From positions 47,244,001-47,308,000 of the forward strand of contig CM060733.1 of NCBI GenBank assembly GCA_030704615.1: a DNA stretch of 64,000 nucleotides, in the 5' to 3' direction. This DNA comes from Takakia lepidozioides. Taxonomy: Eukaryota; Plantae; Bryophyta. The notes beneath the pieces are model-generated. The model had not been told where the DNA came from. It searched no databases and was given only the letters and a program-made list of their open reading frames with translations. Shown here piece after piece: positions 4,561-48,138 of the stretch. Position 1 is the stretch's first letter; each line of letters opens with the position of its first letter. A program made the translations under genes and the position numbers.

Positions 4561-5625
4561 TTAGATACTCATCAGTTGGTGAATCTGGTTGCACTTTCCA
4601 TGGCTCTGGAAAAATCCCACTGAAGGGAGGATTGTTTGCCGCCTTTCTTGGTGTGTCGTCAACAAGAACAGTGTCCTCATAAGTCCATTCTGGCCAGTCT
4701 GCCTACATTCTAGACAAGTTCTTGAAATATAATGGCTTTGAACAGACCCCTTACGGCATGGGAGGACTGGATCCTCGTCACAGTGAAGGGCATCCCACTG
4801 GAAAACCAGCTTAGTGTGGGCTGCAAAAATATAGTCCACCATTGGGAAGAAGTTGCGAGCTTGGCAACAAGACCACACCGCCACCTCAAAGTGTTCAAAA
4901 CACTTTTGCAAAAAGTCATAACAGCGTGGTCTCAAAACTACCATCTTCTTGTCACACATCTTCCCCACAAAACCTTTGGGAAGGGATGCAGGCCCATTAG
5001 CAGAATGAAAAGATTCACATAACAGACCATTTAAGTCCAAAATTAGTAAATGCTTCCTCGCTGGTCCAGGAAGTAAACTGTCATTTGGCTTCAACATGTG
5101 AACAAGAGAAATTAAAGCAACATGTTTGTTTGTTTTGTCCCCGTCTGCATCTTCCTCCCCATTTGAACTCCCACATACCTGCATACCAGAATCCGGTGTG
5201 CCAGGCGGCTCTGTCACCATTGCCCCCTGGACTGCTACTGCCTTTGTACGTGGCAAGGGCTGAATTTCCACGTGTACCTCACAGCTCGCCTTCCCTGTAT
5301 CCTGCTGCTGCTCGGTCAAATTCAAAAGATCATCAGTGACAGGAAGACATAAGGGCTTAGAGTAAGCACCAGTTACCGTCTGAAATTGGGATTCCAAACA
5401 ATTTGATACTGTCACAGCAGACGCATCCATCGTAGATATCATTGGTCCTAGGCCTGGTAGATTAATCCCCAATCTGGCCACAATGGCTTTCTGGTACTCA
5501 ATCATGCTCTGCATCTGTAATTTTAAGTCTGCCATGTCACGTCCTTGTGATTCCACCAGTTTGTCCAAGCCATCCATCCTGCCAACTACTGTAGAATATA
5601 CGAGACTTCCCTCCTGCCAATCCAT
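4561..5625 (-). pseudogene. Coiled coil plus FCP1/NIF (HAD-fold) phosphatase-like domain; likely 3' part of the TnpA-like gene
   Basis: KHLLILDLNGLL...LRPRCYDFLQKCFEHFEVAVWS...LVFQWD..HC. After a frameshift near 4735 it continues KPLYFKNL...TVLVDDTPRKAANNPPFSGIFP, with one stop. Confidence 0.75.
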
Positions 5626-5980
5626 GAAAACTTGCCCAAGTATGAATCAAACAAAAAAAACCTAGCATGAACAACGACTGGAAAGAAAACCCAGGCCAAA
5701 AGCCTTGAAAAAAACCCTAGCAACCTATGATGCAGCAACCACTCTAGCAAACGTGGAAAACACACTTATCCGCCTGTCACTCCCAGTTGACAACCGTGAC
5801 ACTGAACCCTCTTGAATTTCATATAATATAGGAGGGCACCCTGATAGGGTTTCCTGCAAATTAATTAATCCATGCCACAAACAAACCCATGCCACAAGTC
5901 AGTAAGCAATGTGAGGGCTGACTATATACACATAGCAATTCAATGAGGAACAAAATACAGAGTCATGATGATGTCACTTA

Positions 5981-8640: not shown

Positions 8641-8861
8641 TCCTAAATCCTAAATTGCCAAAAAAATAAAAATATACACTATGAGATTTGGAAAGAAAAT
8701 GGCGTTATATAACGACTTTTGGGAAGCGCCTGGATCTCATGGGAGAAAATGGATCTGAAGAAAACATCAGAGAGGATAAAAAGTCAGACCACCAAATAAA
8801 AACTATGAGAAATAAAAATTGCTTAAAATTTGAACAACGGAAAAGGACATGTGAAATTCCC

Positions 8862-9392
8862 TGTCGTGCGCATACATATCGCTACACAACTACATCGCTG
8901 TCCAAACCACACCACATATATATGCACAATAAAGTAGTCTGCCACAATGATAAGAAAGCTTGAAAGGACACACACTCTCAACACAAGAAATATGAAATCC
9001 CTCAACATCACTCGTTAAAACAGAAGTCGAGCCAGGGGCACCCCAAGCTGTGGGGACTCCACCCCACAACAACCTACACTCCCATCATGAGCACACTCAG
9101 TCCTAAACGATGCAGGAGCTCGATCGCGCAGGCTCAACTCGAGAGAGATGAGCCACGCGACTGCCGCTCTCGTGAAGATAAGGCCGTTCAGGTGTCAAAC
9201 TAAACTTGACACCTGATTTAACACTTGACCTTAATCCAAGTGTTAAATACAAATAACTAGCTTTATTCTAGTTGTTTTCACACTGTGCTTATTTAACTTG
9301 ACAGCTGTCGTGCGCATACATATCGCTACACAACTACATCGCTGTCCAAACCATACCACATATATATGCACAATAAAGTAGTCTGCCACAAT
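8862..9392 (-). repeat. 3' terminal block of element 1 (sense Z-gc-X-Y-Z)
   Basis: 87-bp direct repeat Z at 8862-8948 and 9306-9392 (1 mismatch). X 9138-9303 is directly repeated at 20237-20402. Y 8948-9153 is repeated inverted at 20031-20236. GC spacer at 9304-9305. Confidence 0.95.
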
Positions 9393-9402
9393 CGCCCCCC
9401 TA
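9393..9402 (-). promoter_or_regulatory. Polypurine-tract-like motif directly upstream of the internal Z copy
   Basis: Sense AGGGGGGCG then ATTGTGGC. Element 2 has AGGGGGGTG then ATTGTGGC at the same position (about 23246-23255). Confidence 0.65.
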
Positions 9403-9941: not shown

Positions 9942-10900
9942 TCAAACCCTCAAAATAACACGTCCTGCAGTCACATCCAGGGTCGTAGGAGCAGTCTGCT
10001 GCAGATAGACATAGTCACCAGGGTTGAATCTCCGAACCCCAGGACGATAGCCCCCACCACATATGGTAGCATACCTCAACGTATCACGGTGTTGTGCAAT
10101 GGCAAGGTTCTCGAAAGCCATGGGCATGACTCTCTTGAACAACTCTGCACGCTGCTCACATGCACGTGCCCACACGTTCGGATCGTCAAGGTTAAGAACT
10201 GTAGCAGCTTCTCTGCGAATGGATGTAGGCAAATCCGGCTCTCGGCCAAAGAGAAGAAAGTATGGTGAGAAGGAGGCAAGTGATGCTTGCTTGCTGAACC
10301 TGTAGCCCATGGCTAACCAGGGTAACTGAAGGTCCCAATCTCCTAGGTGTCCCTTCTGCAAGCCATACTTGCGCAAACCCCTCTTTACTGTCTGAACAAC
10401 TCTCTCTGCCAAGCCATCGGCCTCAGGATGATCCCGAGAAGTGGTGCGGTGGTCTATCAAGGCCTTGTCACACAAAACCTGAAACTCCCCCAAGAACTCT
10501 CTCCCTTGGTCCGTGAGTACCTCAGCTGGAGCACCGAATCGGCTAAGCACACAATCCAAGAATGCATATGCAGCTCCCTCACTAGCCTTATCAGGCAATG
10601 GAACCAATTCAATCCACTTGGAGAAGTGCTCCACCATCACCAACACGTACTTGTTGTGGCGCATGGTCAGTGGCAATGGCCCTGCGAAGTCAAGACTCCA
10701 CCTGTAGCCCAATCCCATGATCGGAAGAGGGTGCAATTGTGGAGTAAGGGCGTTGAATGAAGCACGCACCCTGTCATACACCATGCACCTAGCCACAAAT
10801 TGTTGCACCTATGTGTGCATACCACGCCACCAATACTGCCCCTGCAGTAGACTATGAGTGCGTCGCACCCCAAAATGCCCCAACTCCTCATGGGCATGCC
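9942..10900 (-). pseudogene. DDE integrase (element 1)
   Basis: HEELGHFG zinc-binding region; WSLDFAGP, LTDQGREF and ADGLAER catalytic triad; SPYFLLFGR. In-frame stops at 10809 and 9942. Confidence 0.95.
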
Positions 10901-11289
10901 GCACTAACCGTGCCCGCTGTGTTGGGTGAGGCACAATCCTCACTCGACCATCCTCCCACACTCGGAGCAGGTGTATCCCCTCCCACTTGAACCTCTTGGC
11001 TCGTTGTAGGATCCGATCCCTCTCCTTGGCAGTCACAGTGGCTGCAGTGTCTCCAGTGCGGAGGTAGTCCAACACAACTGAATCCTCATGTATATCTTTG
11101 GCGCCACCTTGCTCATTGCTGGCCTCAGGGTCCTCAGACACTTGATCTACTGTCATCCATGTTGCAGGTCCAACCTGGCCTTCCGCTGCCAAGATACACA
11201 GAAATGCAGATGCATGCCATTCGGGCACCATCTCCTCGTCCGTCTCACCATGCCACCGAGCTCCAGTGTCATCCTGCTGGCTCGTGCAT

Positions 11290-12446
11290 GGATTGCGACT
11301 CAACCCATCTGCATTGTGATTGACTAAACCCGGTCGATGCACCACCTGAAAGTCATACTCTTGAAGGATGAGTGCCCACCGTGCAAGCTTCCCCGTAAGC
11401 TTGTCTGACTCCATCAACCACTTGAGTGGTTGGTGATCCGTGACAAGGGTGAAGAGATTGTCGTATAAATAGCACCTGAAGTGTGCCACGGCCCACACTG
11501 CAGCTAAGCATTCTCTCTCATATGAGCTATACTTAGACTCTGCAGCATTGTTCGAGCGGCTAGCATAAGCCACTACGAACTCTCTTCCCTCATCATCCAC
11601 CTGTGTGAGCACCGCTCCAAGCCCCAGCATGCTCCAATCTGTATGCAGCTGAAAAGGACGCCCCCTGATAGGTCGTCTCAAGATGGGCGCCGAGGTCAAC
11701 CTCACCTTGAGCTCTTGAAAAGCTTGTTCTTGCTCACCTTCCCACTGCCACTCCTGGTCCACCTTGGTCAGCTTGGTTAGAGTCTTTGCAATGGCACTAA
11801 ATCCCTTAACAAACCGTCTGTAATAGTTTGCTAACCCCATGAAAGCTCGAACTCGGCTCACATCCGTGGGGCGTGGAACCTGTGCAATGGACTCTACCTT
11901 AGTCTGCTGTACCCCCAATCCTCCAGGATATATCATGTGACCCAGATACTCAATCTGGTTGTGGAAAAACTTGCACTTGCCCGGATGTAACTTCAATCCG
12001 TGCGTCCTCAAGCACTCAAATACCCCCTGAAGGTGTCTTTCATGCTCCTCCACCGTAGCACTAAAGATGATGATGTCATCTATGTAGCACCGAGCAAACT
12101 CCACCCCTGCTAGAATCCTGTCCATGACTCTTTGAAACTCAGCGGGAGCGTTTTTAAGCCCAAATGGTAAGAACTGCCATTGGTATAGGCAATCCTTCCC
12201 GTGCTCATTGATCCCCCAGAATGCCGTCTTTTGCTTAGAGACATCCTTCTTGGCTGGCATCACTGTGGCTGAAGCATACTCTCCACCAGAGAGCTCCACC
12301 AAACCTGCCTCCCAAAGATCCTGAGTTCTCATCTGAATCAAGGACCTCTCCATGTCACTGTATCTATAGGGTCTCCGAAAGATTGGCGTGTCAGTGGCCA
12401 ATTCAATGCGAATCTCTTGACCCTTCAGTGCTCCCAAGTCTTTCAA
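11290..12446 (-). pseudogene. Reverse transcriptase and RNase H (element 1), with an in-frame internal deletion
   Basis: LPFGLKNAP, YIDDII, LHTDWS, VVAYASR, TDHQPL, ADGLSR. Lacks about 59 codons present in element 2 between KKD and KQKT (near 12238). Confidence 0.95.
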
Positions 12447-12929
12447 ACTGAAGGCAAAGCAATTCCTATAAGCCCTCAGGAACCGCCGTATACGTTGTCT
12501 CTCTCCTCCGGTGACAATGGGTCCAATGTCAGGCTCCCAATTGTCCTCTGTAACTGCAACCTTAAGTCCAGTGGGCTTAGAGGTAGAGGACGCGTCCCGT
12601 GGTTGCTATGCTGCAACCTCTTGAGCAGTACTCCATTCCTGCTCAGTCAATGACAAGGCCTCATCCTGCCCCATCATCTCATCATTGAGAACCTCCTCCT
12701 CCCGAGAAGAATCCCCAACCTCATCCATCACAGCTGCCTTGGCTGCCAACTCCCTCTGAACCTCGAGTACCTCCCACGTGTGCCATGGATGTCTACACCC
12801 TGTGGTCCTCACCGGCTCGCCCCCACTCGCTGCCTGTACCGTCTCGGTAGGCAGAGAGACCGTCAAGGGAAGTGCACTCCGCACTCTACGTTGCTCAACC
12901 ATAGCCAAGCTGATAATCCAGGTCAAGCA

Positions 12930-13875
12930 ATTGAGATCCATTGCTTGCCCCAACACCTGACGACGTGATGCCTCAGAAAGAGAAGGCACCGCCGTGGTCC
13001 CAGTGGAAAACCCCATAGCCCGCTCTCGCTCGTCGGCATTAGGCTCCACTAACTGTTGCATCTGAGCATCCCACAGGAGGCCAGGTCCACCATCCCGAAA
13101 AGCATGGGATCCTGGGAAGCTGAGCAGTGTAGGTAATGCTGCTCATGGTTGACCCACCCTGTTGACCACTGCCAAAGGCGAATGGTCATCGTGTCTCACA
13201 CGTTGAGACTGCCTCCCTGTGTCCAAAATGCTGTCCACTATGAGGTGTGTTGGCCGCTGCACCCCATCAAATGCATGCTTGAGCAGTGCGGGTGGCATTA
13301 AGTTAATCCACCATAGCCGTGGACGATGAGCCCGTGATCCCACTGCAGCTGCATCCAGCAGCACTGCTGACCCAAGCCACGACCGGACTTGATGCACACT
13401 GGCCATCACCCTGGCCCGAGAATCGCCCATCAGTGGCACATTCTCCAAGATGTATGCTGGTGATACAGCTTGATGAAGCTGCAAGTGGCACAAAATCCGC
13501 ACCATCTCCCAAAACAGACATGTCCTCGAGTCTCGCAATTCATTGTCATGCCCGGCTGATGAATGCCCTTGGCAGGGCCAACCTGCCACTACCAGATCAA
13601 TGGAGCCAACCTGCTCCAAATCGGCGCCCCAGCAACAAAATGTCTGCTGGCAAGGCTTATTGGTATCCACGAACTGCAGACACTGGCAACAAAGCAGGGT
13701 ACTGCTGTACCAACTGAGCAACATGGCGCAGTGAGACGCGTCGTGCAGTCTCATCCCTCTCCACATACAGGTAATGCCTTACCCGCACAAGTAACGCCTT
13801 ACCCGCACACCTGCCTGTAGCACAGCAGCCAATCCGGTGCTGATCCCGCCAAACAAGTCCAGAAGGCAAATGCCT
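12930..13875 (-). pseudogene. C5-cytosine DNA methyltransferase domain within Pol (element 1)
   Basis: Motif I LDLFGGI, IV AGWPCQ, VI ENV, VIII HRPRLWW, IX ERERAMGF and X LGQAMD in non-permuted order. Disrupted by a 20-bp duplication (13769-13808), stops and a frameshift. Confidence 0.9.
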
Positions 13876-14289
13876 TCATCCGGATACTGCCACACAATAG
13901 GTGTGGTATCCAATGGTGACAACTGAGGTGGTCCTGGTGCAATACCCGCATTCTCCTCCTCTCCTGACGGTACAAAAGCCTCTACCCAGGCTTGTTGCAC
14001 CCGTCGATCAGCAACCTGCTGCAAATCCTTGCTTGTACCCCACAATGGAGTGTGAGCAACCATGGCAGGCAACTCCGCCATACCATGCATGTCATCCTGC
14101 TCTGCTGGAGGTGGCACATCTTCTGCATGGGCATTGCCTTCCAGCAACTCTCCAGGCCAACTAACTGCAGCTGTAAAGGCGGCTAGTGTTGGCATCTTGC
14201 CCCGTTGGGCAGCCGCAATACCCCCAATGAATGTCACAGGGAGCTGTGCACGACGACCATCCCCTGACTGCCATCCAGGCCTGTAGAAT

Positions 14290-14600
14290 GCTGACTCCTC
14301 CCAAAAGTCCAGGGTGAAGCCCATGGGGTATAACTCTGCCCCACCAACGAGGACATCGTAAGAGACCGCGTTTGTCACAATGGCCTTGGCTCGCATGACT
14401 GAGCCATCGATAGGATGATCCGGCTGCAGTCTAATGGCCAACTGATGCCGTGTCATGCCCCGAGCCTGCTCTGATCCTCCCAGAGATGTCTGTATCTGGA
14501 AAGGACAAGGCTCCATATCCGCCTCCATGAGGCCCAAACCTGCAATAGCAGCTCTGCCCAACATCAGTGGCTGAGCTCCCGAGTCCAACAAGACCCGCAA
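14290..14600 (-). pseudogene. Retropepsin-like aspartic protease (element 1)
   Basis: VLLDSGAQ...YDVLVGG. Confidence 0.8.
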
Positions 14601-15006
14601 TGGCCGGTACTTCTTGTCTGCCTTCCAGTAACTCCGCAGAAGATGAAGTGACCTCCCCACTCTCACAGAGTGTTGCTGCTAGTCTAAACACTGCAGCTGG
14701 TCTTACCCCCAGCGTCGCAATCATGGTTGCCAAGAACAGTGGGGCTTGACACACAGAGGCAAGGCTGCCAACAACAGTGGGCTACACGAGGTGGCTAATG
14801 GCAAGAAACCTCCGCCTCGGTAACAGTCGGGCGAGAACTAGGTGCCATGGATGGCGTTGACACTGTCTCCGCCAAGGTGAATGACTGAGGCAGCCTCGCC
14901 TGATGGCTTGCCTCCCCACGTTGTGGATCCAACTCCACCTCTGTACCTCGTGGTTCAGGAACTCGTGCTGCTCCTCGAATCACGGCTGCAGCAGACTCCA
15001 CCTGCT

Positions 15007-16608
15007 CTAGTGGTAGTGCTGCTCCGCACATGAATCCCATGCCTCCATATCTCCTCCCTCGGGAGCAGGAGGTGGACCATCCCGCCTGGGAGCCGGTACC
15101 GCCTGAGCTATAGCCATTGCAGCGAGCCTCTGCTCTAGCTGCTGAAGCCGGTTGGCCATGCCTTGGTCAACACCCTGACCTCCGCGTCCGTGGCCATGTT
15201 GAGCTTGCCCTTGGCCTGCACCTCGTGCCCGACCACCTTGTCCTCTCTGGGCTGGTCCACCTCGCCCCCGGCCACCATTGTTCCCTTGGAACTGGCCTGG
15301 GCGCAACTCAGGATGCAAGTCATAACACTGGGCATCTCCATGCCCATACTTGCCACAATGCCCACACCGCAACTGTGTAGGCTGTGTTTGTGCCGGCCTT
15401 TTGCCACTCTCTGGGCAATCTCTCTTGACATGGGGTCCTCCACATGTCCAACATATCACCCCTGGTTGCTGTTGGCCTGCAAAAGATGCCACGGGCCTTT
15501 GCACCTGAGGTCCCCTGTAAGCTCCATGGAACTTGGGTTGGGAAACCTTGCCCCCCTGACCACGCTGTTGGGCAGTCCCTTGTGCCTGTGGGCTGGCAGC
15601 TGCTCCTCGTGCAGGCATGTCCTTGCCAAACCCAATGGTAATAACTCGCTCCTCCACCATGTTGAGCTCAATCCGCTCAGCCAGCAGAAACACATCTGCT
15701 AATGTGGGTTGGGCTGCTTGTAACAGGGTTGCATCCCGCACCCTTCTCCTGAGCTCCTTGTCCAAAATTCCATACCAGAACTGGATTGCCTGAGCTTCAG
15801 TAACCCCTTGGGTCACACTTATCAAGCGCCTCATACGAGTGTAGGCCTCTCGCAAGCTCTCACTGGGTTTGCGCTGGAAGTCTTACAAACTTCGCAGCTT
15901 CTCTGTCCGTACACCTTGGTAGTTCCTCCGCAACTCCCGGAAGAACTCCACCACCGGGTTGAATCTAGGCACATGTGTTGTAGTCGTGGCAGGAGGAGTA
16001 GTAGCACCTTTTGAACTGGTACCACCTGCAGAAGTACCGGCACTACTTGTTCCACTACTAGTGCTGGTAGTGGGAGATATTGGTACTGATGCAGCTACTG
16101 GTCGCATCGTGCCTCGAGTAATGGAGACGTAGTCAGGTGACCAATACATCCTCCACTCCTCAATCTCTGCTTCATGTCCTCGCCTGAACTCGTGGTAATC
16201 GTCCATAGGTGGGCCTTCCAAACGCTGGAACAGTCCCTTCCACGCCATGAATGGGATGAATAGCTGTGGATTGCGCATCTGCTGCAAATCACACCAGCTG
16301 TCGAACTCCTGGATAAAGTCATCCAACTCGATTGTGCCCACAGCTCCAGAGTACCTACGAGGCCCCTTGGTAGCTCCATACATCTCCTCCATGTCGTCCC
16401 ACAACAATGGCGAATGAAACTGCACACCTGTTGATGAAGCCTCCGAGTCTGTGTCTGACTCTACAGTAGTTGAGGGTGGCGGTGAAGGTGGTCTGAACCG
16501 AATACCTCGTCTTGTGAACCCACTCTCACTGTTACTGCTTGTAGCTGTACTCCCCTCAAAACCCTTGGGTAACTCCGTAATGACACTCACAATGTGCACC
16601 TCCTCCAC
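15007..16608 (-). pseudogene. Gag (element 1) with two zinc knuckles
   Basis: Q...ES.REAYTR major-homology-like segment; CWTCGGPHVKRDC and CGHCGKYGHGDAQC. Frameshift near 15885. Confidence 0.85.
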
Positions 16609-16697
16609 GTGACACTATAAGGCTCTAGTACTAATCTAATAGTGACACGGGTGGGCACCTGTTGCAGTCTAAGGGTCATATCCCAATGGCTCAGGGC

Positions 16698-17876: not shown

Positions 17877-18297
17877 ACAAGGAGGACATCCACAGATTTG
17901 TCTCTCAAATAGACCAGAATTGGTTCTAGAAACAGAATTGTGGATCTTTCACGACACACTCACACTCTAAAAATTCCATAGATTTTTAGCAGAGTCCCAA
18001 AAACAGAAACTAGATAGGTAGATTTCCCCTTTCTGCAGCTATCCCCTCAAAAACTGAGTCAAACGGAGCTCATTTGACAAAGATATGACCAACCAGGCTC
18101 TTTAAACATTTAAATTAGATCAAAAAGGCCCTTTTTTTTTTTTTAACACCAAAATGTTTTTGCCATTACAACCTGTTCCCAGGTTATCTATGGGTTCCCA
18201 AGGCCGTTCCCTTTCAGGCTTCTCCAGGCACCAAGAGCTCATTAACTCCAAAACTCGACCTCAGTTGGGTGGGGTATCACACCCTGGAGGCGATTTG

Positions 18298-18465
18298 CTT
18301 TTCTCTGCGCGTGGGCCTACCTCCTCGAGCTTTCAGGACGGCAAGGCAGCAGCCATGTTTACAGCACGCAGGAAGATTCAGAAGGAGAAGGGGCTCGAGC
18401 CTGATGAGTTTGAAGAGGCTGTAGCCCAGGCCTTATTCGACCTAGAGACTACAAACCAGGAATTG
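18298..18465 (+). pseudogene. RPS7: Captured 40S ribosomal protein S7 5' fragment (5'UTR and first 37 codons)
   Basis: ATG at 18355: [37 protein letters not shown], preceded by a pyrimidine-starting leader. Confidence 0.9.
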
Positions 18466-20030
18466 GGGCGATTTCAAGAGCAGATGCACTGCGCAACACC
18501 TTCATGGCTTATGGACAGGCGGCCTGCTGTAATGTGGCCGTCTTTGCATAGAATCCAAGGCCAAGACCAGCTTGAAGTTCCATCAACTTGGTCTAATTCG
18601 CATCTCTCGTCAGCGATTATTGTTGGCTTACAATGGTTTCCGCCTTCCTGTTACTGCTCGTGTTTCTTCAGTGTGCAATTTACAGGTCAGGGATCAGCGA
18701 CAACAGGCACCAGATTGCCCCGTCACCACCCCCACAAGGCACAGACAACTTCACTGCCAAGAAAAAGAAAGTGAACCATGCTCAACATGCAGACCCAAGG
18801 CCTGGGTCCATCTGCATCAGCTCCAGTATAAGAGAGACAATCATACAGTTATCAAGTCTCTACAGGGATTTGCGATTGCCTCAGTAAAGTGGAACTCAAT
18901 CTGCAGCCTCCTTCCGCCGCCTCTCCATCAACCCTTGGAGGCTCTCGTCCGCTGGCCTCATCCGTCAGCATTGCTTCTCCTGCTACGAGTCTTCGCATTT
19001 CCTCCCCTGCTCGCCTGTGCAGAAGTAAGTACCCTTGACGCCGAAATGACAGTAGAGGCAAGTGATCAGTTGGGAGTGTTCAAATGATGAGACAAGTAGA
19101 GCTGGAGCTCCCTTGACCTGTATCGCCACAATCTTGGACTCGGGCAGTGTGCTGAGTTGAAAGTTGGGTTGTGAACCACCATTCGACTTTCCACCAGTTT
19201 CCACCTCAAAATGGTGGAACCAAGGTGCAAGGCAGCAACAGCTACTTGGCTTTGTACAAACCTGAAGCACTTAAAAAAAAAAACGACTTTGCACCTTGCA
19301 CTCCCCGAAATCAACAATGCCCCCAACAACCCTTTTTGTCAGAAAGTTGGTTGCTTATGCAGATAATCGACCAGGTGAAAGCAGCTTTCCCAGCCACAGT
19401 CACAAGTAGCATGAAGATTTGTGAGACTCCTGGTTTTGCAGTGTTGATGATATGCCAGCAATGGGCTCCCCGTTCTCCACCGCTTTGCTGCTAGGCTTTC
19501 TCTCTCGGGCCTGCACCTTCAACCAGCTCGCTGCGCCGTGCTCTACCTGCCGGCGCTACATTTACTGGAGGGAGCGGATTTACAGCTCCTCCTTCAACTG
19601 GCTCCGCTACACCAGCTCCACCTGCTCTTCCGCTGCCTTTCCTGACTGCTTCTGGTCTGTCCTGGTTTGAATTTAACACTGGTCTGTGCACATCGAACTA
19701 AGGCGAGCAGCCCGGCCATCTCCAGGCACGGAAGTTCTACCCATCTGCTCGATCACAGGCTCCTCCTTTAAGTCTCGCACTTGGTCATTTTCCCAACGGC
19801 CAATCGCTGCTACTCCACGATGTCTCCTCACCGACCAAAACGAAGGCTGCTTCCATGCAGTGTAGCTCCATCATGCCCGGCGGCCTCATGCCAGAACCAA
19901 TGCTGATCGAAACCTGCATATTTTGTTTTTTTTTTTTTTTTTTTTAAGCTTCTAAAACTAAGCACTACTTACACACAGGTAATCGTACAAGTGCTAATTC
20001 TCAACTCCTACCTTGCACTCACAGGTAAGA

Positions 20031-20402
20031 GCTCATCTCTCTCGAGTTGAGCCTGCGCGACCGAGCTCCTGCATCGTTTAGGACTGAGTGTGCTCATGAT
20101 GGGAGTGTAGGTTGTTGTGGGGTGGAGTCGCCACAGCTTGGGGTGCCCCTGGCTCGACTTCTGTTTTAACGAGTGATGTTGAGGGATTTCATATTTCTTG
20201 TGTTGAGAGTGTGTGTCCTTTCAAGCCTTCTTATCACTCGAGAGAGATGAGCCACGCGACTGCCGCTCTCGTGAAGATAAGGTCGTTCAGGTGTCAAACT
20301 AAACTTGACACCTGATTTAATACTTGACCTAAATCCAAGTGTTAAATACAAATAACTAGCTTTATTCTAGTTGTTTTCACACTGTGCTTATTTAACTTGA
20401 CA
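20031..20402 (-). repeat. 5' terminal block of element 1 (sense X then inverted Y), with a 16-bp inverted repeat
   Basis: GCTCATCTCTCTCGAG at 20031-20046 and CTCGAGAGAGATGAGC at 20237-20252 flank the inverted segment. About 3 mismatches per repeat against the 3' copies. Confidence 0.95.
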
Positions 20403-20930
20403 TCCCTCTTAAACCAGGGCCAAAGATAAGAAGTATGAAAATGAAATGAAATGAAAATTTGGTGCAGAAAAGTCGTAGAGCTTAGAGGGAAAATGGAGGA
20501 AAACCGCAGAGAAAAAACTTCAGGACTGGCAAATTGAAAAGTATGTCAACAACGATTGAGTAAGGCTCCTCCTAGTGGGAGACTTCAGTGGAAGAATTGG
20601 TTATGCGAAAAGCAAGTCCAATGTTTCAGAGAATGATTGGAAATAGGCTATTTTCTTCCATTGTTAAAAACCTCTTTGACCGAATTTGAAGACTCCAGTG
20701 GTCGTGCCCGCCCATTTTGTTCTTGTGATCTATATGTTATGTAGGCGAAACTCCCCCACAGGGTATTTTTTGTTGACCAGGACGTACAGCAGGCCAGAAT
20801 CCAGCAAACCAGAAACAAAGGACGAGAACGTTCACTGGACATTCGAGGTTCAATGCGACATAAGAATATTGCAGAAAGAATCCCCCAACGCAAACAAGAA
20901 AGGCCATATAGAGAAGAAAAAATTTATTTC

Positions 20931-22704
20931 TTAAATCGAAGTACTGGAGTTGACCTCAACAATATGTCTTTGGTCTGGAACTCGCTCGCACGACTCGCTT
21001 TCTGACTGACGATTAGCCTCCTCCAAATTAACGCACGCCTTCACTGCTTCGGCGGTAGTAATTCTCTTAGTGCTATTCATTGTCGTATTTTTCCGTGGAG
21101 GCATTGTCCACACAACATTGTTCACGTGGATCCATTGAGGAGGATCTATCAAGTTATACTCCCAAAGTTTTGACCAGCAGTCCCTGTACCTTTCCAAGTC
21201 TGTTGGGTTACCACCTTTTCTCGGTCTCCACCACTCCACCTTCACCTTCTTAAAATTAGGATCCTCCCTTTCGCGGATCACGTCAGATATTGCCACCCCC
21301 ATCCAGACCGGGCACGTACTTGGGTCATGAGAGCGAACGAGCACATAGAACCCTTTCTCAATATCCTTGAACGGATTCAGGGATATTCTTGGTCGCTCGC
21401 ACCTCGGGCCACAATAAGGTTTTAGGATTTCACCATCTTCTTCCACATCTAGCACTATATGTAGATGGATTCCATCTCTGTGATGATTCTTGGACCAATT
21501 TATTTTTGGCCAGAATCCCTCAAAAAGCTAAATACACTCGGGAGCTTCTGGAATTGGCTTATCCAGCTCAGCGAGAATGTTTCCCCAGTACTGGTTGTAT
21601 TGTTCCATTCAACCTCTGTAATGATCGTCAAGCATCATTCCTTTCGTCCAAAAATCCCTGTATTTTTTTATTCCATTCTTAATGAATGACTATTTTTCGG
21701 AAGAGTCGTCCCCGACTCCCCAGATAGGTCTCATTGGAACGGCGTTTGGGTCTCTTTCAGGGAGCTTGGGAGTCCCGTCAGGATTGGACTTCCACATCTT
21801 CACGCTGTTGTTTGTTGGAAGCCAATCCGAATCAGAAGCGGACTTCTTGTACTTCATGACGGGCCAACCCTCGGCATCCTTAAAAAAGCGGAAGACGTAC
21901 ATCTCCGAAATCCCGACCAACGCCTCCTTTCCATCCAGAATACAACCCTTGACAAAATTCTTGAAGTCGGGAACCTCCTGAATAATCTGTGGAATGAACT
22001 GCAGATCTTGCGAGGTCATGAATGACCTCATCAAATCCGAAAGAATGTAGGTGCTTCGTTCCTTCAACTTCTTCGAAAGGTAGCTGAAGAACCCGTCGAT
22101 GTCCTCATGGGTGTGTCCGACCATTAAGAACCCTAGTTGGATTTCTTCAAAAACATCTTTGGCGGTTAGGAGGGATAGAAAAGCAAGCATCCATCTGTTC
22201 TTATTGTCCTTTGCGGAGTTGTCCATTTGCAAGTACAGTCTTCTCGGAAGTGGACGAGCACCACGTTTGTCTTCCGGCCTGCAGGATTTCAGAGCATCCA
22301 AACATTTTGATTTACCTCTTAAAAGTGATTCGAAAAACTCGTTTTGAAGTCGGTAATCGAAAATGTGCCTGGACTCACGACAGGTTGGCTTCTCCAGCTG
22401 GCGCAGGCAACGGGCCAAAGAACCAATTGTAAAGTTTGAATTTCCCTTCCAGAACTCAAGAGAATATTGTCCGTAAGCTCCATCACCGTGTCCGTGCGTG
22501 ACCATTCCCGTTAGTGAAATTGGAAGCTGACCCAATCCAGAAATCATCTTGTTTGGAGTCTGTAGCCTTGGAACAGCTGTTTTCCTATGATCCAATTTGT
22601 CGTGAATAATACAGAGAAACTCCTCCGGAATCATAACAGACTCATTCCTCCAGCTATGGTACAGTCTTCTGCACGACTCTTGGTGCCTCAAATGTTTATC
22701 AAGA
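20931..22704 (-). pseudogene. DUF7869-type (Sola-like DDD/E) transposase, 5' part cut off by retroelement 2
   Basis: IIHDKLDH...LYLQMDNSAKDNKN...FLMVGHTHEDIDGFF. Continues through in-frame stops into the 20931-21455 ORF (PVWMGVA...VKVEWWRP). Confidence 0.75.
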
Positions 22705-23245
22705 TGTCATGCACCTAAGCATCGTGCCACAACATACATCGCTATCCACCATACATTCTAAGCACACAATCCTAGAAAGCTATGCCACAATGATAATGAA
22801 AGTGAACACAAGGGAAACATTCCACTCATGAATCCACTCAATCACATAAACTAAGTCAAGCCAAGGGCACCCTTGCTAAGGGAATCCACCCTACAAAGCC
22901 CTCAACACACTCCCTCTCAATACCTAGAGCTATGGAGGTGAGAGAGGCTCATGGAGGTTCAACTACAAGAAGATGAGCCCTCCTCAACGCTCACAAGGGG
23001 AAAATCCATCCCCATGTCCCAAGTGAGGTTTGACACCTCACTTGGCATGTGAGACCAAATGAAGTCCCAACACACAAAATACAAATATAAATATCCAAAT
23101 TGTCCTAGTTAACTAGAAGTAGGTAATTCTAGTTAACCATGACTAAAACCATGACAGCTGTCGTGCACCTAAGCATCGTGCCACAACATACATCGTTGTC
23201 TACCATACATTCTAAGCACACAATCGTAGAAATCTATGCCACAAT
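22705..23245 (-). repeat. 3' terminal block of element 2 (sense Z-gc-X-Y-Z)
   Basis: 87-bp direct repeats at 22705-22791 and 23159-23245. Junction ATGACA-GC-TGTCG at 23151-23163. Confidence 0.92.
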
Positions 23246-26200
23246 CACCCCCCTAGCCGGTGATTAGGTCCCTCTAACACCGGATAGCTGACAAGTATTC
23301 ATCTCAATAAGATCATCACTTGGTCTTCAATCACACATGTCCCAATTTTTTAAAGTATATGGATCAAGAGGCCGGGTGCAACGAGAGCCCCATCATTAAT
23401 CGCCTACTTGCAATCCATGATCTTCAATTGAGTATCCATGGCGTTGAGCTCCTACAAGCTAGACCTTGGATCACTTGTCAACTCCACCATTGTCATGCCC
23501 ACTGCCTATGTCCAAGGCATCGTGGACACAACCATTCTCCACTAGAAACCTCCTCAAGTGGCGGTGTCAAGCATCCCATGTCCCACCCCCTTGAGCATTT
23601 GTCACACACCAGCATGGTTACGGCACCACCAGCATGCCCACATAGCATGCAACGTAACCCTGCAGGTACCACTGCAAGGTTGGGATCTATCCTCCCATCC
23701 ACATGTGGAAGGTGACATGGCGCACAATTGCGCACATGGTCCTTCCATACCGTGCCATCTCGACCCTCCAGAATCAACACTCCTGAAGGCAACACCTCCC
23801 GGACCCTTAGAATCACACGCCCTGCTGTGACATCCAAAGTCGTAGGCGCTGTCTGCTGCAGATACACATAGTCCCCAGGGTGGAGACGCCAAACACCTGG
23901 CCGATATCCCCCTCCACGTACAGTGGCATACCTTAATGTGTCTCGGTGTTGGGCAATAGCAAGGTTCTCAAAAGCCATAGGCATGACTCTCTTGAACAAT
24001 TCTGCCCGCTGGGCACATGCTTGTGTCCACACATCCGGATCATCAAGGTTGAGGACTACTACAGTCTCCCTACGAATAGATGCAGGCAAATCTGGCTCTC
24101 GGCCAAAGAGAAGGAAATAAGGTGAGAATGAGGCAAGTGAAGCTTGTTTGCTGAACCTATAGCCCATAGCTAGCCAAGGCAGCTGAAGGTCCCAATCTCC
24201 TAGGTGTCCCTTCTGCAAACCGTACTTGCGCAAACCTCTCTTGACTGTCTGAACAATTCTCTCCGCCAAGCCATCAGCCTCGGGATGATCCCGAGAAGTA
24301 GTGCGGTGATCTATCAAGGCTTGCTCACACAAAGCCTGAAACTCCCCCAAGAATTCTCTCTCCCTGGTCCGTGAGTATCTCGGCTGGAGCACCAAAATGG
24401 CTAAGCACTCGATCTAAGAATGCATACGCAGCCCCCTCACTTGCATTGTCAGGCAATGCCACCAGTTCAATCCATTTGGAAAAGTGTTCCACCATCACCA
24501 GCACATACTTGTTATGGCGAATCGTCAGTGGCAATGGGCCTGCGAAGTCAAGACTCCAACGATAGCCCAAACCCATAATGGGTAAATGATGCAATTGTGG
24601 AGTAGGGGCGTTGAAAGAAGCCCGCACTCTATCACACACCATGCACCTTGCCACTAACTGTTGCACATCCGTGTGCATGCCTCGCCACCAATACTGCCCT
24701 TGCAGCAAACTATGAGTGCGTCGCACCCCAAAATGTCTCAACTCCTCATGGGCATGGCGTACCAATCGCGCTCGTTGTGTTGGATGAGGCACAATCCTCA
24801 CTCGTCCATCCTCCCATACCCGGAGTAGGTGAGTCCCTTCCCACTTGAACCTCATGGCTCGTTGTAGGATCCGATCTCTTTCCTTAGCAGTCACACTGGC
24901 TGCTGTCTCTCATGTACGAAGGTAGGCCAACACTGCTGCATCTTCATGCACATCCTTAGCACCACCAAGCTCATCACTGATCTCCGGATCGTCATGCACA
25001 CCATCTACTTGACCAATGTTATGGGATGGACCAGCTTGAGCTCCCATTGCTAGGATGCACAAAAAGGCAGATGCATGCCATCCTGGCACCATCTCCTCAT
25101 CTGTCTCACCATGCCACCGAGCTCCAGTATCATCATGCTCACTCGTGCATGGATTACGACTCAATCCATATGCATCCCGATTGACAATACCGGCTTGATG
25201 CACCACCTGGAAGTCATACTCTTGAAGCATAAGTGTCCACCGTGCAAGCTTCCCTGTAAACTTGTCTGACTCCATCAACCACTTCAATGGTTGGTGATCC
25301 GTGACAAGGGTGAAGAGATTGCCATAGAGGTAGCATCTGAAATGTGTCACTGCCCATACCGCAGCTAGACACTTCCCTTCATATGAACTATACTTCGTCT
25401 CGGCATCATTGTTCGAGCGGCTAGCATATGCCACTACGAACTCTCTTCCCTCATCATCCACTTGTGTGAGCACTGCTCCAATCCCCAGCATACTCCAATC
25501 TGTATGTAGCTGGAAAGGCCGCCCCCGAATAGGCCGCCTCAGAATAGGTGCAGAAGTCAATCGAGCCTTGAGTTCCTCAAAGGTTTCCTCCTGTTCCTCC
25601 TCCCACTACCACTCCTGACCCACCTTGGTCAACTTGGTAAGAGCCTTTGCAATGCTGCTAAATCCCTTGACAAACCGTCGATAGTAGTTTGTCAACCCCA
25701 TGAAAGCACGCACTCTGCTAACATCTATGGGGCGTGGAATGCGTGCAATGGCCTCCACCTTCGTCTTTTGAACACCCAATCCTCCAGGGTATATCATGTG
25801 GCCCAGATACTCAATCTGGTTGTGGAAGAACTTGCACTTCTCAGGGTGCAATTTCAACCCGTGCGCTCTCAAGCGCTCAAACACCACCTGAAGGTGTCTC
25901 TCATGCTCCTCAACCGTAGCACTAAAGACGATGATGTCATCAATGTAGCACCGGGCGAAGTCTAGCCCCACGAGAATCCTATCCATGACCCTGTGAAACT
26001 CTGCAGGAGCATTCTTCAGCCCAAACGGTAAGAACCGCCATTGGTACAAGCAATCCTTCTCATGTTGGTCAATCCCCCAGAATGTCGTCTTTTGCTTATC
26101 AGCCTCTTTGATTGGCAACTGGTGGTAACCAGATCGCAAGTCCAATGTGCTAAACACCTTTGCATGCCCAATGGCATCAAAGATCTCCTCTGGAGTTGGC

Positions 26201-30970: not shown

Positions 30971-31384
30971 ATACAGCAACTCCCCCACACCAAAAACACT
31001 CCACAATGTCGCTTCTGCAATGACACCCCAGCCCAAACCCGGACTGACTCTTGCCTCCACCTACGGAAAGGTTTTGGCCTACAGAGAGGGTGGAAGACTA
31101 CAAGGAAGAGAGAGTAAAGCAATTCATATCACAGCATGCTCTCATCCCACTACCCTATCTCCACACTCTCTTGAACAATAGACAAGACTACCTTTCAAGG
31201 GTCTCTCAAATAACTCTCCATGAGCCCTCAAGAATATGTCTCTCAAACAATCTTACTAATCCTTGCACGATGGGACTCCAAAACAGTACACCAAGGCCCC
31301 AAGCTTGCCAAAACTTAGCCCTCGAGGACCCCAATAGTCCCTCACACAAGTCGCCAAAGACTCCTCAAGCTCGCCAAATATTGG

Positions 31385-31515
31385 CCTCCAAGGACCCCAA
31401 ATAGTCCTCCAAAGAACTCCAAATGGTCCTCCAAATGGTCCTCCAAACAGTCCTCCAAGGACTCCCAATGGTCCTCCAAATGGTCCTCTAAGGACCCCAA
31501 ACAGTCCTCCAAGGA
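31385..31515 (+). repeat. Degenerate 12-bp minisatellite (GGTCCTCCAAAT-like)
   Basis: Repeated GGTCCTCCAAAT, AGTCCTCCAAGG and GGACCCCAAA units. Confidence 0.8.
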
Positions 31516-31989
31516 ATGTAGTTCCAAGGTAAATTATTCCTTCGTTGCGTTTTCATTCCATCCAGGATGTCGAGTGCTCAAGGGACAATTTTCTGTGCTT
31601 GCATGTTGTTGCCCCTCCACTCCTCCCGTCGTTCAATAGAAAAACATCTCCAACATCGACACAGCGTGACCCTGAACTGCTGGCACAATGTTCTGCACCA
31701 AAGAGGCGAAAAAGAGCCCCCGAACCATTTCTTTCCTCTACAGGAAATCTTTCCAACGGACAAAAGCCTAACAAGAAAAAAAGAGCGGACGCCAAACACT
31801 TGAGGACTCCCTCGGATGTTGTGGCGCCTCGTCAATCCAAGCCCGCGGGAATCCACTGTTCTTCTACAAGACATTCCAATAAGGCTTCAATGGTACATTT
31901 CAAAACAATTTCTCCACTTTCGTTTGCAGTTTGTTTTGATGTCCCAAACTAACTCCGTAATTTTTATACAAGCGAGTATGGGATGCTCG

Positions 31990-34761: not shown

Positions 34762-36975
34762 AGCCGCACCCTACCAGGAAGTAATGGCTGCCCACGAATG
34801 ACGGCGGACATCTCCCGCCTAATGACACACCCTCCTCAAACCTAATCGTCACTCACTGCATGTTGTTTGCCTCTCTGTTTGTGCAAGTCGCAGCTACTCG
34901 CCCCCATTTGTGCTATGAAGGTTATGAGAGCTGTAGGAAGGTCAGAGGATAAGGCAAATCGCATGTTTAGTGGGTGGGTAACCAAAGTCAGGAACTAAAC
35001 TCACCCATCTATCGACTGCTTGAAAGTTGCTTCCACCTCCTTTATGGCAGCAATCCGGCGCTCTCGGAACTTCTCGTACTCAGTGAGAGGGACTGTCACT
35101 TCGAAGACCTTCCACTTCACCATGGACACTCAGAAACGACACTTACAGATGCAGAAGATATAGAAATAGCACATTGGCAGCCGGTGCAAAACAAGAGACA
35201 ATGCACTGTGCGTAGCATGCAAAGAGGGTAGGGGTGACGTTCAAAGCATGTACAATGCAGGTGGCGACCGGATGCGTAGGCGTAGAATAGATGACCGTCT
35301 ATGGCGAATGGAAGAAGTTTATGCCACAAGGAATGGGCATACAAAAATGCTATGCAACTGCGATGAGTGTCATGGAGGAAAACTACTGTTGTTGGAAATA
35401 GTGAGAAATCATTACATGATACACGGGAGGGATCATCTTCTCCGACGTTGTTCTCTTCCGGTACGATCGCCACTTTCCCTTCATCACTTTAGTTTGAATT
35501 TTGAATGCAACGATCATCTTCTCCACATGTCGACATTTCGTTTGGTGATTGTAGTCAAGAAGTCATAAGATACAGACGTGACTATGACTACGTCACTTCC
35601 GTTATCACTTTAATTAATGCACATGTCGTGTTTTCATTGGTCATGTGTAGTCATGTAGTCATATATGACTAACTAAGTGACTGCAACTATGACTTCAATG
35701 GCTACAAATGTCGTGTTTTGATTGGGTGTATATTCATAAGATACATACGTCAATATGACTGCATCACTGCAACGTCACCGTGCCTCCCATGTCATAATAT
35801 GAACAAGTGTCACATCGTTGTTGGTCCACTCACAAGATGACTATTGGGGTGCAAGGATGTGAATATTCAGATGATGAAGACGAAGGCCCTGCGGCACAGC
35901 GGGAGCCCAATGTCACAGAGAACGCAGATAAGGGAGGTGGATTGGAGGTAGAAATCCAGCGTGCATTGCAGGAAGCGTTTCTCTTTGCAGATGCAAACAG
36001 AGAGGACCCCATTCATGGTGGAACCGATCACACATTTGCTGATCATGACGATGACCTCAACGATTCCGGAGACAATGAATTTGATGAGAATGCTCAACTG
36101 CACGTTGATCCCGAGTATGATAAACTCTTCCGACAGTCGCAATGTCTTTTTGAAGGGTGCTCGATCAGCCGGCTGCAAGCAACTTTGACGTTGCTGAATG
36201 CATGCACTACCCACAAGTGCACCAATGCATTTGTGGATGAGCTTCTGGGATTGTTGCGTAAGAGTTTTTTGCCTAAAGAGAATTCATTGCCGAAAATTCA
36301 CTATGAAGCAAAAACCATGATTGCCAAGATGGGATTGCAGTATACCATGATTCATGCCTGTGAGCGTGGTTGTGTACTCTTCCATGGGGAGTATGAGAAT
36401 GTAGACATTTGCCCAGTGTGCCGCAGTTCCCGTTACATTCCAGGTCGTGGAAGTGTGCCCAAGAAAGTATTGCGACACTTCCCTGTCATTCCAAGGTTGA
36501 AACATATGTACCGATGTAAATCGATCACTAACCTCATGACATGGCACAACAGACATAAGAGCCAGGATGGGTTGGTTCGACATCCAGCTGATAGCAAAGC
36601 ATGGAGACACATTGACACCACATTTGAGGATTTTGCTGCAGAGCCACGATCTGTGCGATTTGGATTGGCCTTGGACGGTGTAAAACCCTAGGGAGCTCAA
36701 TCCACCAGTTGGAGCACATGGCCCGTTCTCTTGGTCAATTACAATCTGCCTCCGTGGTTAATGACCAAAAAGTTCTTTGTCATGTTAACGCTACTGATTC
36801 TTGGTAAGGAGTCTGTTATCTCGGACAACGTAGATGTTTACCTGATGCCCCTAGTGGAAGAGCTACTGGAACTATGGAGAGGGATTGCAGCTCATGATGT
36901 TTCCCGTCCTCGTGGTCAACACGAATTCACACTAAGGACAGTGTTGATGTGGTCAATCCATGACTACCCTGCATA

Positions 36976-45414: not shown

Positions 45415-46161
45415 ACACTAGACATAGGATGGGAGTTGAATGCGCACGTGCCAGCCTGCCGGTACGGTCACCGGGGCTTGCCGGAGCCGGGACGCCCTTG
45501 GCAGGGCCCGCAGTCAAATCCCCACCCCCGCGACCCCGCGCCGTGCTGTTATTGCCTGTATTATAGTACAAAACAAAAAAATTCTGAGGGGTGGCAAGAA
45601 AGTGGCGGGTAGCTTGGCGGCTAGGTGCATTGACCAGTATTATTTTCAAACCTTGCCCATGGCACGATGTAAATCGTTTATTTAAGGAATTGACTAAGGT
45701 ACCATTAGTTTTTTGCATCTCCAAAAAATTTCTAAGTCCCTTAAGCAGTTCTCCACTCCCATGTTCCCAATCGCTGCTCCCATGTTCTCCGCTCCCCTCG
45801 CTCTCATGTGTCCGCCGCTCCCCTGTGTTACTGCTCCCCTGTTACTACTCCCGGCTCCCTTGTGCTATTGCTCCCTCGTTTTACTGCTTCATTGCTCCAA
45901 TAACAGGGGAGCGGAGGAGCGGGGATCAATAATAGGGGAGCAGGGGAGCGGGGAGCAATAACAGGGGAGCGGGGAACAGGGGATCGGCGGAGCGGGAACA
46001 TGGGAGCGCCGCAGTGGAAACATGGAGCGTGGGACCCTCGGATGGGCGTGAAGCATACACGAGGGAAGCGGGGGTGGGGATTTGACCGCGGGCCCCCTGC
46101 TCCAGGGATCGTACGGCAAGCCTCGCACGCGTGCATTCAACTCCCATCCTATGTCTAATGT
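45415..46161. mobile_element. Non-autonomous foldback/TIR element
   Basis: TIR ACACTAGACATAGGATGGGAGTTGAATGC with GCATTCAACTCCCATCCTATGTCTAATGT. Internal GCTCCCC/GGGGAGC palindromic array at about 45770-46030. Possible TSD GAAC/AAAC. Confidence 0.85.
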
Positions 46162-47067: not shown

Positions 47068-48138
47068 TCAGAAAAAAGAAAAAAGAGGAAAAATAGATAG
47101 TCTATCAAGGGCAACATGACAGGTCAACAATTTAGCTGTCCTAGATAAAGTAGGCCAATGATACCATATTTTGTGAACCATATCAAACACTATTGCTTCA
47201 GAACTAACTCCAAAAGGTGAAGTAAAAACCACCATATCGCCTTTCCGTTTGCAACAATAAAAACCCCCTTGTTTCATAGCTTTGAATTTTGTGTAAAGAA
47301 CATTTGGCATTCTCACAACCTTAATCCATTTTCTTTCGAATAGCTCAAGCTCCCAAATTTGAATACCCGTGTGACCATGATATAACTCTTCATCAAATAT
47401 TACTCCTTGTCTTTTTGCAAGTACACTCAAGTTGAAATACGTCTCTTTGGGCGTAGCTTCCAAATTGGCTTTAGGGGAGGTTGTGAAAGTATACTCACTC
47501 ACACTACCCACTAGATATAGATGTCCTCGCCACTCCATTAGATTTGGTGGTAATAATATATAATCTACATATGGAATGGGAACCATATCTGTTCGGTCAA
47601 CTTTTTGTACAAGTAGATTAAATGGAAACTGTTGATCGATTTGATACCATGATTCATTGCAATATACTATTTTCTTAGATGTGACAACAATAGGAGGGAG
47701 TGGGTCACCTAATAGGCGCCATCTTCCGCTTCTTGCATTGTATATCTCTAAAATTAGGTCATTACGAAGCATAGACCTTGCAATTTCTCCCATTACAATC
47801 ACTCTGTAGTCATTATCATCTAAAATGTAGAATCCTACGACCTTTGAGAGTTTAGTAAGCAAGGGGGGGAGTGTTATCCATGTTTTTGTTGTTGGATTGC
47901 AAACAAACAAAATGTCTAATGGACTTTTGCAAAGAATAAGACCACTAGATGATGCACAAATAGAGACTTTGCATGGCAAAAACATAAGTGAAATTGTACC
48001 CCACCTCTCTATAATTGGGTTGTAGGCTAACAATATGTGATCATATAGTCTAGGATTGTAAATAACCAGTGATGGCACCCACACCAACATTCGTTCTATT
48101 AAGTGTCTTGGAAGAGAACCCCACAATCTTTCATCCAT
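47068..48138 (-). CDS. Intronless F-box/kelch-like protein; F-box appears internally deleted
   Basis: MDERLWGSLPRHLIERMLVWVP F-box start; ICASSSGLIL...LFVCNPTTKTWITLPPL; EIYNARSGRW; LMEWRGHLYLVG; IWEL....WIKVVRMP. Lacks the usual R.VCK.W segment. Confidence 0.75.
   Translation of the reverse strand: MDERLWGSLPRHLIERMLVWVPSLVIYNPRLYDHILLAYNPIIERWGTISLMFLPCKVSICASSSGLILCKSPLDILFVCNPTTKTWITLPPLLTKLSKVVGFYILDDNDYRVIVMGEIARSMLRNDLILEIYNARSGRWRLLGDPLPPIVVTSKKIVYCNESWYQIDQQFPFNLLVQKVDRTDMVPIPYVDYILLPPNLMEWRGHLYLVGSVSEYTFTTSPKANLEATPKETYFNLSVLAKRQGVIFDEELYHGHTGIQIWELELFERKWIKVVRMPNVLYTKFKAMKQGGFYCCKRKGDMVVFTSPFGVSSEAIVFDMVHKIWYHWPTLSRTAKLLTCHVALDRLSIFPLFSFF

Follow-up and report, generated by a model that had tools for sequence, protein, structure and literature searches.

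Positions 20031–20402 of the 64-kb stretch of DNA analyzed here (the window) raise the question of whether a 16-nt inverted repeat and a 206-nt end-to-end complementarity belong to one self-priming mechanism, as a preliminary description had proposed. Both matches were confirmed. The 16-mer GCTCATCTCTCTCGAG at 20031–20046 has a perfect reverse complement at 20237–20252, and the pair 20047/20236 extends this repeat to 17 bp. It is the sole perfect inverted repeat of at least 14 nt with arms within 400 nt in the window (rough chance expectation for a 16-mer inverted repeat, 64000 × 400/4^16, about 0.006). Positions 8948–9153 were 98.5% complementary to 20031–20236, with three differences, and positions 9137–9303 were 98.2% identical to 20236–20402. 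The absence of TGG after both borders was confirmed as well, as was the related motif in a second element (about 22959–22980), whose 3′ layout is the same as that of the first. A second repeat pair (B), a palindromic B|A junction, a polypurine tract (PPT) and a 4-bp target duplication had not been noted in that description. The reading that we consider probable is that the inverted repeat consists of the self-primer together with the primer-binding site (PBS) of a Gypsy element with split LTRs, that the 206-nt match arose by inversion of the loop between them, and that the element is inserted through the palindrome.

The locus belongs to a Ty3/Gypsy element of 11.5 kb (element 1), located on the minus strand from 20402 (TGTCA start) to 8862 (CGACA end). 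Its repeats are split in the layout A1-PBS-ORFs-PPT-B1-GC-A2-B2 (Table 1), the 5′ end being A1 alone and then the primer site. Read in the order B then A, the two parts make up an ordinary LTR, which starts at the PPT, contains the TATA and the primer, and ends with CA at the primer site. B1 (9391–9306) and B2 (8947–8862) showed one difference, and the three repeat pairs of the element differ at 3, 3 and 1 sites, as is expected if all pairs were identical at insertion. The Pfam scan covered the reading frames of the window except 47068–48258, nine of those scanned being from element 1. An RNase H domain was present in element 1, and a PHD finger follows the integrase core in another frame, its Pfam match being shown for element 2. 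No chromodomain was matched in Pfam, the PHD finger being present instead, and no tyrosine recombinase was matched in the nine reading frames scanned from element 1, which gave an rve match instead. The A1 unit of element 2 was not found within the 64-kb window; this element ceases to resemble element 1 at about 31078, close to a 12-nt tandem array (31050–31520).

Table 1. Coordinates of element 1 and of the 3′ end of element 2 in the window.
Feature	Positions	Strand	Basis
Left target-site duplication GGGA	20403..20406	-	sequence
A1 promoter part X0, TGTCA start = left insertion end	20253..20402	-	98% identity to A2; start common to relatives
Predicted self-primer a, putative RNA 5′ end	20237..20252	-	perfect complement of 20031–20046; same position in relatives
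R-U5-like segment (Y), 190 nt, inverted relative to A2, relatives and host-family contigs	20047..20236	-	
Predicted primer-binding site a′, immediately 3′ of A1, without TGG	20031..20046	-	
Extra segment of about 2 kb after primer site, borders approximate	18018..20030	-	antisense ribosomal protein S7 fragment
Putative gag-like region, broken by stops	15007..16614	-	position and CCHC-like motifs; no match in Pfam search
Putative protease-like motif and C5 cytosine methyltransferase, broken	13143..14678	-	PF00145 E 1.3e-12
Reverse transcriptase (internal gap), RNase H, integrase zinc finger	10809..12605	-	Pfam
DDE integrase core, D-35-E spacing intact	9942..10808	-	Pfam
Polypurine tract AGGGGGGCGA	9392..9401	-	sequence; kept in relatives
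B1 (U3 start), 86 nt, CACGACA end	9306..9391	-	repeat comparison
Palindromic B1|A2 junction ACA-GC-TGT, predicted integrase site	9299..9310	.	22 loci in relatives
A2, 356 nt: X0, a 9153–9138, Y 9137–8948, TCA end	8948..9303	-	
B2, 86 nt, CACGACA end = right insertion end, blunt join to A2	8862..8947	-	
Right target-site duplication GGGA	8858..8861	-	sequence
Element 2 3′ end: PPT, B1 23244–23159, GC, A2 23156–22791, B2 22790–22705	22705..23254	-	

Two further observations concern the 5′ region of element 1. The extra segment contains runs of poly(A/T) and, near 19990–20024 on the plus strand, a signal resembling a 3′ splice site, and its antisense Pfam S7e match (E 1.1e-4) was below the cut-off. 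In a loose end of one host-family contig (X7, record 25), a′ is joined to sequence resembling 18018 onward. This contig lacks the segment, yet the first 40 nt of the segment are covered by contigs from three runs; the segment may therefore mark a subfamily. Within X0, two hairpin-type near-palindromes, GGTGTCAAG...TTGACACC and AACACTTGG...CAAGTATT, were observed at 20287–20347, and hairpins are located upstream of the primer at a similar place in element 2 and in the related locus L005.

Relatives were obtained by a metagenome scan, which gave at least 80 loci. A or B units of two groups (groups 1 and 2) were matched in 59 of the at least 80 loci listed, and the 21 of 80 without such a match are on contigs that are too short or belong to a distant family. 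Ten loci were removed as repeats of the same insertion, judged by their flanks, and L039/L040 were counted once. Among the remaining loci listed, the 3′ end was B-A-B in 22 and a single B in 21; two others were truncated or rearranged, two were at a contig edge and two had no 3′ end. The 12 distinct 5′ ends among the matches listed, visible within up to 10 kb upstream, all consisted of A alone in direct orientation, with no B in front, three of them having less than 160 nt upstream. The TGTCA start of A is common to the relatives. Nine listed related elements had both ends, and the 4-bp duplication was exact in six of these, had one mismatch in two and was absent from one; five of the nine had the A...B form. 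No clear terminal repeat pair was detected in the self-comparison of 13 more distant loci among those listed, and no relative was confirmed in a scan of viral contigs. Two loci had unusual structures. At L005:8540–9317 an A-like unit comes after the PPT, B and the same junction, with no following B within the contig, and may be either a head-to-tail copy or a collapsed assembly. At L007:3322–3600, a rearranged copy, the integrase match leads straight into the latter half of A, followed by B, the PPT and B1 being absent.

The function of the short inverted repeat was addressed by comparing primer and site across families, and unrelated pairs were found at the same position. In group 1, the primer AGTTCTTTGAG matches the site CTCAAAGAACT right after the CA of A1, the pairing ends at 11 nt, and a TATA is located 29–31 nt upstream of the primer in eight of nine anchored copies. 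The primer of Tf1 is likewise 11 nt long. In group 2, a 15-nt sequence is involved (primer AGTTTTTCTAGAATT, site AATTCTAGAAAAACT at the A1 end), with the TATA 32 nt upstream in 15 of 20 rows, those where the anchor located the primer; the five misplaced rows and seven missed matches were not used, and L026 comes from a separate comparison. The window has a third pair, unrelated in sequence to the other two. Moreover, two positions were changed on both the primer and the site side in L044 of group 1, a double compensatory change. In individual old copies the pairing is imperfect (9 of 11 nt in four of five group-1 5′ ends, and weak in L036 and L060), as decay predicts. The a/a′ duplex was present in the predicted folds, including those of L003 and L043; the z-scores of the whole region were modest (-2.2, -1.25 and -3.8), and one fold, from nested folding only, showed the central duplex and one flanking stem.

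These comparisons bear on priming by a tRNA or a tRNA half, with the inverted repeat being structural only. No tRNA gene was found in the 64-kb window itself. In a test for tRNA 3′-end sites, no TGG was found after A1 in the window or at the 12 distinct related 5′ ends listed. Since the three unrelated sites each match their own LTR and the double change in L044 is compensatory, a tRNA primer is extremely improbable. Judged from the sequences, the family very probably self-primes without a tRNA. The preliminary description had left the choice between the two RNA ends open; its proposal of priming without a tRNA is strengthened by the covariation in relatives, and of the two ends the 5′ end, as in Tf1, is favored because the primer starts 29–32 nt below the TATA in both related groups. 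In the family of the window only a weak TATA-like word, TTATC, was observed, and the 5′ end of the primer is placed by inference, so the candidate primer length is 12 or 16–17 nt. For the family of element 1 we infer the transcription start, cleavage by RNase H and the length of the primer.

The 206-nt complementarity probably has a different explanation. Self-priming had been expected to explain why Y appears in both orientations, and the panhandle formed by the long match had been considered as part of the mechanism, but neither idea was borne out by the relatives. Of the two orientations in the window, the Y of group 1 aligned with the 3′ one (z 3.5), the inverted one giving no alignment (z 0.3). 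A1 and A2 of the relatives were plain direct repeats with no minus-strand match, and an inverted A was detected in none of the 59 loci listed with an A or B match and in none of the 12 distinct related 5′ ends among the matches listed. The host family gave the same result. In X7 record 25 the end of Y is joined to a′ and continues into the leader (this set, which may be RNA, has three contigs, none over X0, an absence that was given no weight), at least 12 contigs of set X2 had a loose end at 20047, and at least two of set X3 showed a strand change at 20047, as in the direct form. A further set, X8, gave no matching contig. Because the host-family contigs join a′ to the end of Y, the usual 5′ end is X0-a-Y-a′, and in the window copy the 190 nt of Y that separate primer and primer site are flipped exactly. 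A regular role of the inverted Y and the panhandle in replication, with either RNA end priming, is thus very improbable given the direct relatives, the direct host-family contigs and the exactness of the flip between the arms, even though the match is genuine at 98.5%. One contig (X5, record 23) extends 2 nt beyond a′ into X0-like letters and may be a second inverted copy; since the contigs are known from the matches listed only, we call the inversion rare and not unique.

An assembly error, by which the inverted 5′ segment would be absent from the chromosome, would agree with the finding that none of the contigs listed crosses the inverted junctions with 31 nt to either side. The two Y copies, however, differ at three sites, like the X pair, so the inverted segment was not copied from the 3′ end, and a genuine flip is simple to explain mechanistically when 17-bp arms flank the segment; such an error is accordingly most improbable. 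Very probably the 206-nt panhandle is damage to the window copy, seen so far only there. It could have arisen by a template switch, in which the plus strand would pause after a, anneal to a′ on the RNA and copy Y backwards, or by recombination between the 17-bp arms after insertion, which would be indistinguishable from it. With Y flipped, strand transfer would lack the repeat that it requires, and transfer through Y would be blocked.

The insertion ends are the two halves of an internal junction, CACGACA-NN-TGTCA, located within U3. The dinucleotide in 22 listed loci was GC (9), AC (8), GT (4) or AT (1), and all four are derivable from GC by deamination. The A2|B2 join, in turn, connects the two ends expected to be free after reverse transcription. 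In 18 distinct copies of group 2 this join was blunt in six, one letter short in one, carried extra letters in nine and was deleted in two. The extra letters (one to three, A-, AT- or ATT-like) correspond in most cases to the beginning of the primer site. One of the deletions stops where B starts, at a TAC microhomology. For group 1 and the window, the join was blunt and identical in five of six copies, and this constancy is compatible with an inherited junction as well. The A...B form (21) and the A...BAB form (22) of the loci listed were equally diverged (p 1.0 and 0.81) and intermixed on nearly unresolved trees, from which L015, L016, L064 and L042 were excluded because of differing match offsets. 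The A-B-A...B form was found at none of the 12 distinct 5′ ends among the matches listed, including the three with short upstream sequence. A freely cut two-LTR circle predicts this form, and its absence therefore counts against such a circle; the absence fits on the assumption that the left junction is engaged first.

The main rival, itself unlikely, retains self-priming and has the A...BAB form made solely by reverse transcriptase. For instance, the plus strand might start a second time, or nicking at B|A might be followed by a template jump, either of which would give a linear cDNA with ordinary integrase ends, or else the A2-B2 join would be copied from RNA. This rival would account for the missing A-B-A...B form and for the blunt join that stays constant in group 1 and in the window (five of six). 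Against it, the group-2 junctions vary, some keeping primer-site remnants and one being deleted as far as B at a microhomology; furthermore, the palindrome at the B|A junction is conserved, with a spacer of 2 nt, and no purine tract precedes A. Insertion via the internal palindrome, with end-joining of the old ends, is in our view likely.

The steps of this palindrome route can be proposed as follows. The RNA would start at a, as the TATA spacing suggests, and fold onto a′; RNase H would cut it as in Tf1, and the minus strand would then be primed. With the direct repeat of Y serving for transfer and the PPT as priming site, an ordinary linear cDNA of the form B-A...B-A would result. The integrase would skip the outer ends and cut CACGACA-GC-TGTCA in the left LTR, which would become double-stranded first, and the cut ends, which are those observed, would be inserted with the 4-bp duplication. 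Finally, the old outer ends would be end-joined before or after insertion, giving A...B-A-B with the observed junction, and a one-LTR circle or B-to-B recombination would give A...B.

The named protein matches overall were from Marchantia, Calypogeia, Sphagnum, Klebsormidium and green algae, the last at 46–47% identity, which makes a non-seed plant the probable host. The best solved relative of the integrase was that of Ty3. For the integrase-PHD region, the closest named proteins were from Marchantia (75%), and those of K. nitens were 52–53% identical; for the methyltransferase, proteins of Marchantia and Calypogeia were closest (65–69%), and K. nitens had no row among the 26 matches. Elsewhere in the window, the 3′ end of element 2 interrupts a DUF7869 transposase-like frame (20931–22706) at 22705. 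Element 1 follows immediately downstream, and the two elements may thus lie within a single DNA transposon. Additionally, a Transposase_21 (CACTA-type) match (35798–36691, E 7.9e-12), nested GC-rich inverted repeats spanning about 750 nt (45415–46161) and a reading frame with a NIF phosphatase-like match (4561–5646, E 1.3e-7) were detected.

LTR circles are usually regarded as dead ends, and integrase is thought to require cDNA ends. If the palindrome route is true, a high-copy family inserting in this way makes the question of circle precursors testable with short oligonucleotides and native cDNA, and shows a way in which an ordinary LTR can become split repeats; a PHD-bearing Gypsy lineage would be added to those that self-prime. 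Such elements are missed by LTR finders requiring two full LTRs, the basis of selection in PMC6317226, and are therefore probably under-annotated. The panhandle, which looks like damage, matters little here. There is about an even chance that in a plant and algal Gypsy clade a palindrome inside U3 has replaced the cDNA ends as the place where integrase acts, and that this clade has the equivalents of one- and two-LTR circles as normal insertion products, self-primes without a tRNA outside Tf1/Tcn1, and combines a DIRS/Ngaro layout with a DDE integrase.

Ngaro, PAT and TOC1 are also tyrosine-recombinase elements with split repeats. Element 1 differs from this class in its DDE integrase, TG...CA ends, 4-bp duplication, PPT and primer site. 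DIRS, Ngaro and PAT elements are not known to make a target-site duplication, whereas element 1 and its relatives have one of 4 bp. The A-ORFs-B-A-B layout is shared with SymbioDIRS, as far as described in the accessible text of PMC5890265. The same source describes KnitGypsy-Dnmt3 of Klebsormidium nitens, with DIRS-like repeats (A-coding-B-A-B) and Gypsy domains (de Mendoza et al., 2018, PMC5890265), and this element also resembles element 1 in having a Gypsy Pol with a C5 methyltransferase. The split-repeat layout is therefore already published for KnitGypsy-Dnmt3, without a mechanism; the portions of that paper available give no primer, insertion ends, target duplication or A...B form. The proteins of Marchantia and Calypogeia are closer to element 1 than those of K. 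nitens. In the literature searched, which mostly excluded subscription papers and Repbase, only PMC5890265 mentions the split-repeat layout, the accessible part of 10.64898/2026.05.21.726589 adds nothing further on it, and no priming or insertion account for split-repeat Gypsy elements was found.

Regarding priming, Tf1 has the arrangement of primer and site seen in the relatives of element 1 (10.1101/2022.12.06.519325), and self-priming in plants is predicted for Tcn1 and TAR (PMC6317226). In the available text of these two sources, Tf1/sushi and Tcn1 elements have, as here, a predicted RNA 5′ end that pairs with a site after the CA of the LTR and no tRNA site. The family of element 1 differs from them in the PHD finger, the absence of a chromodomain match, the split and permuted LTR, and a longer duplex (15–17 nt) in two of the sets compared, group 2 and the window. 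Tf1-type self-priming involves a three-duplex pretzel structure; nested folding here showed a central duplex and one flanking stem.

With respect to insertion, the foamy virus integrase is likewise reported to cleave a palindromic LTR junction to processed ends (Delelis et al., 2005, PMC1180852). The foamy virus palindrome consists of the joined outer ends, whereas that of element 1 is located inside U3 and is apparently the normal insertion site.
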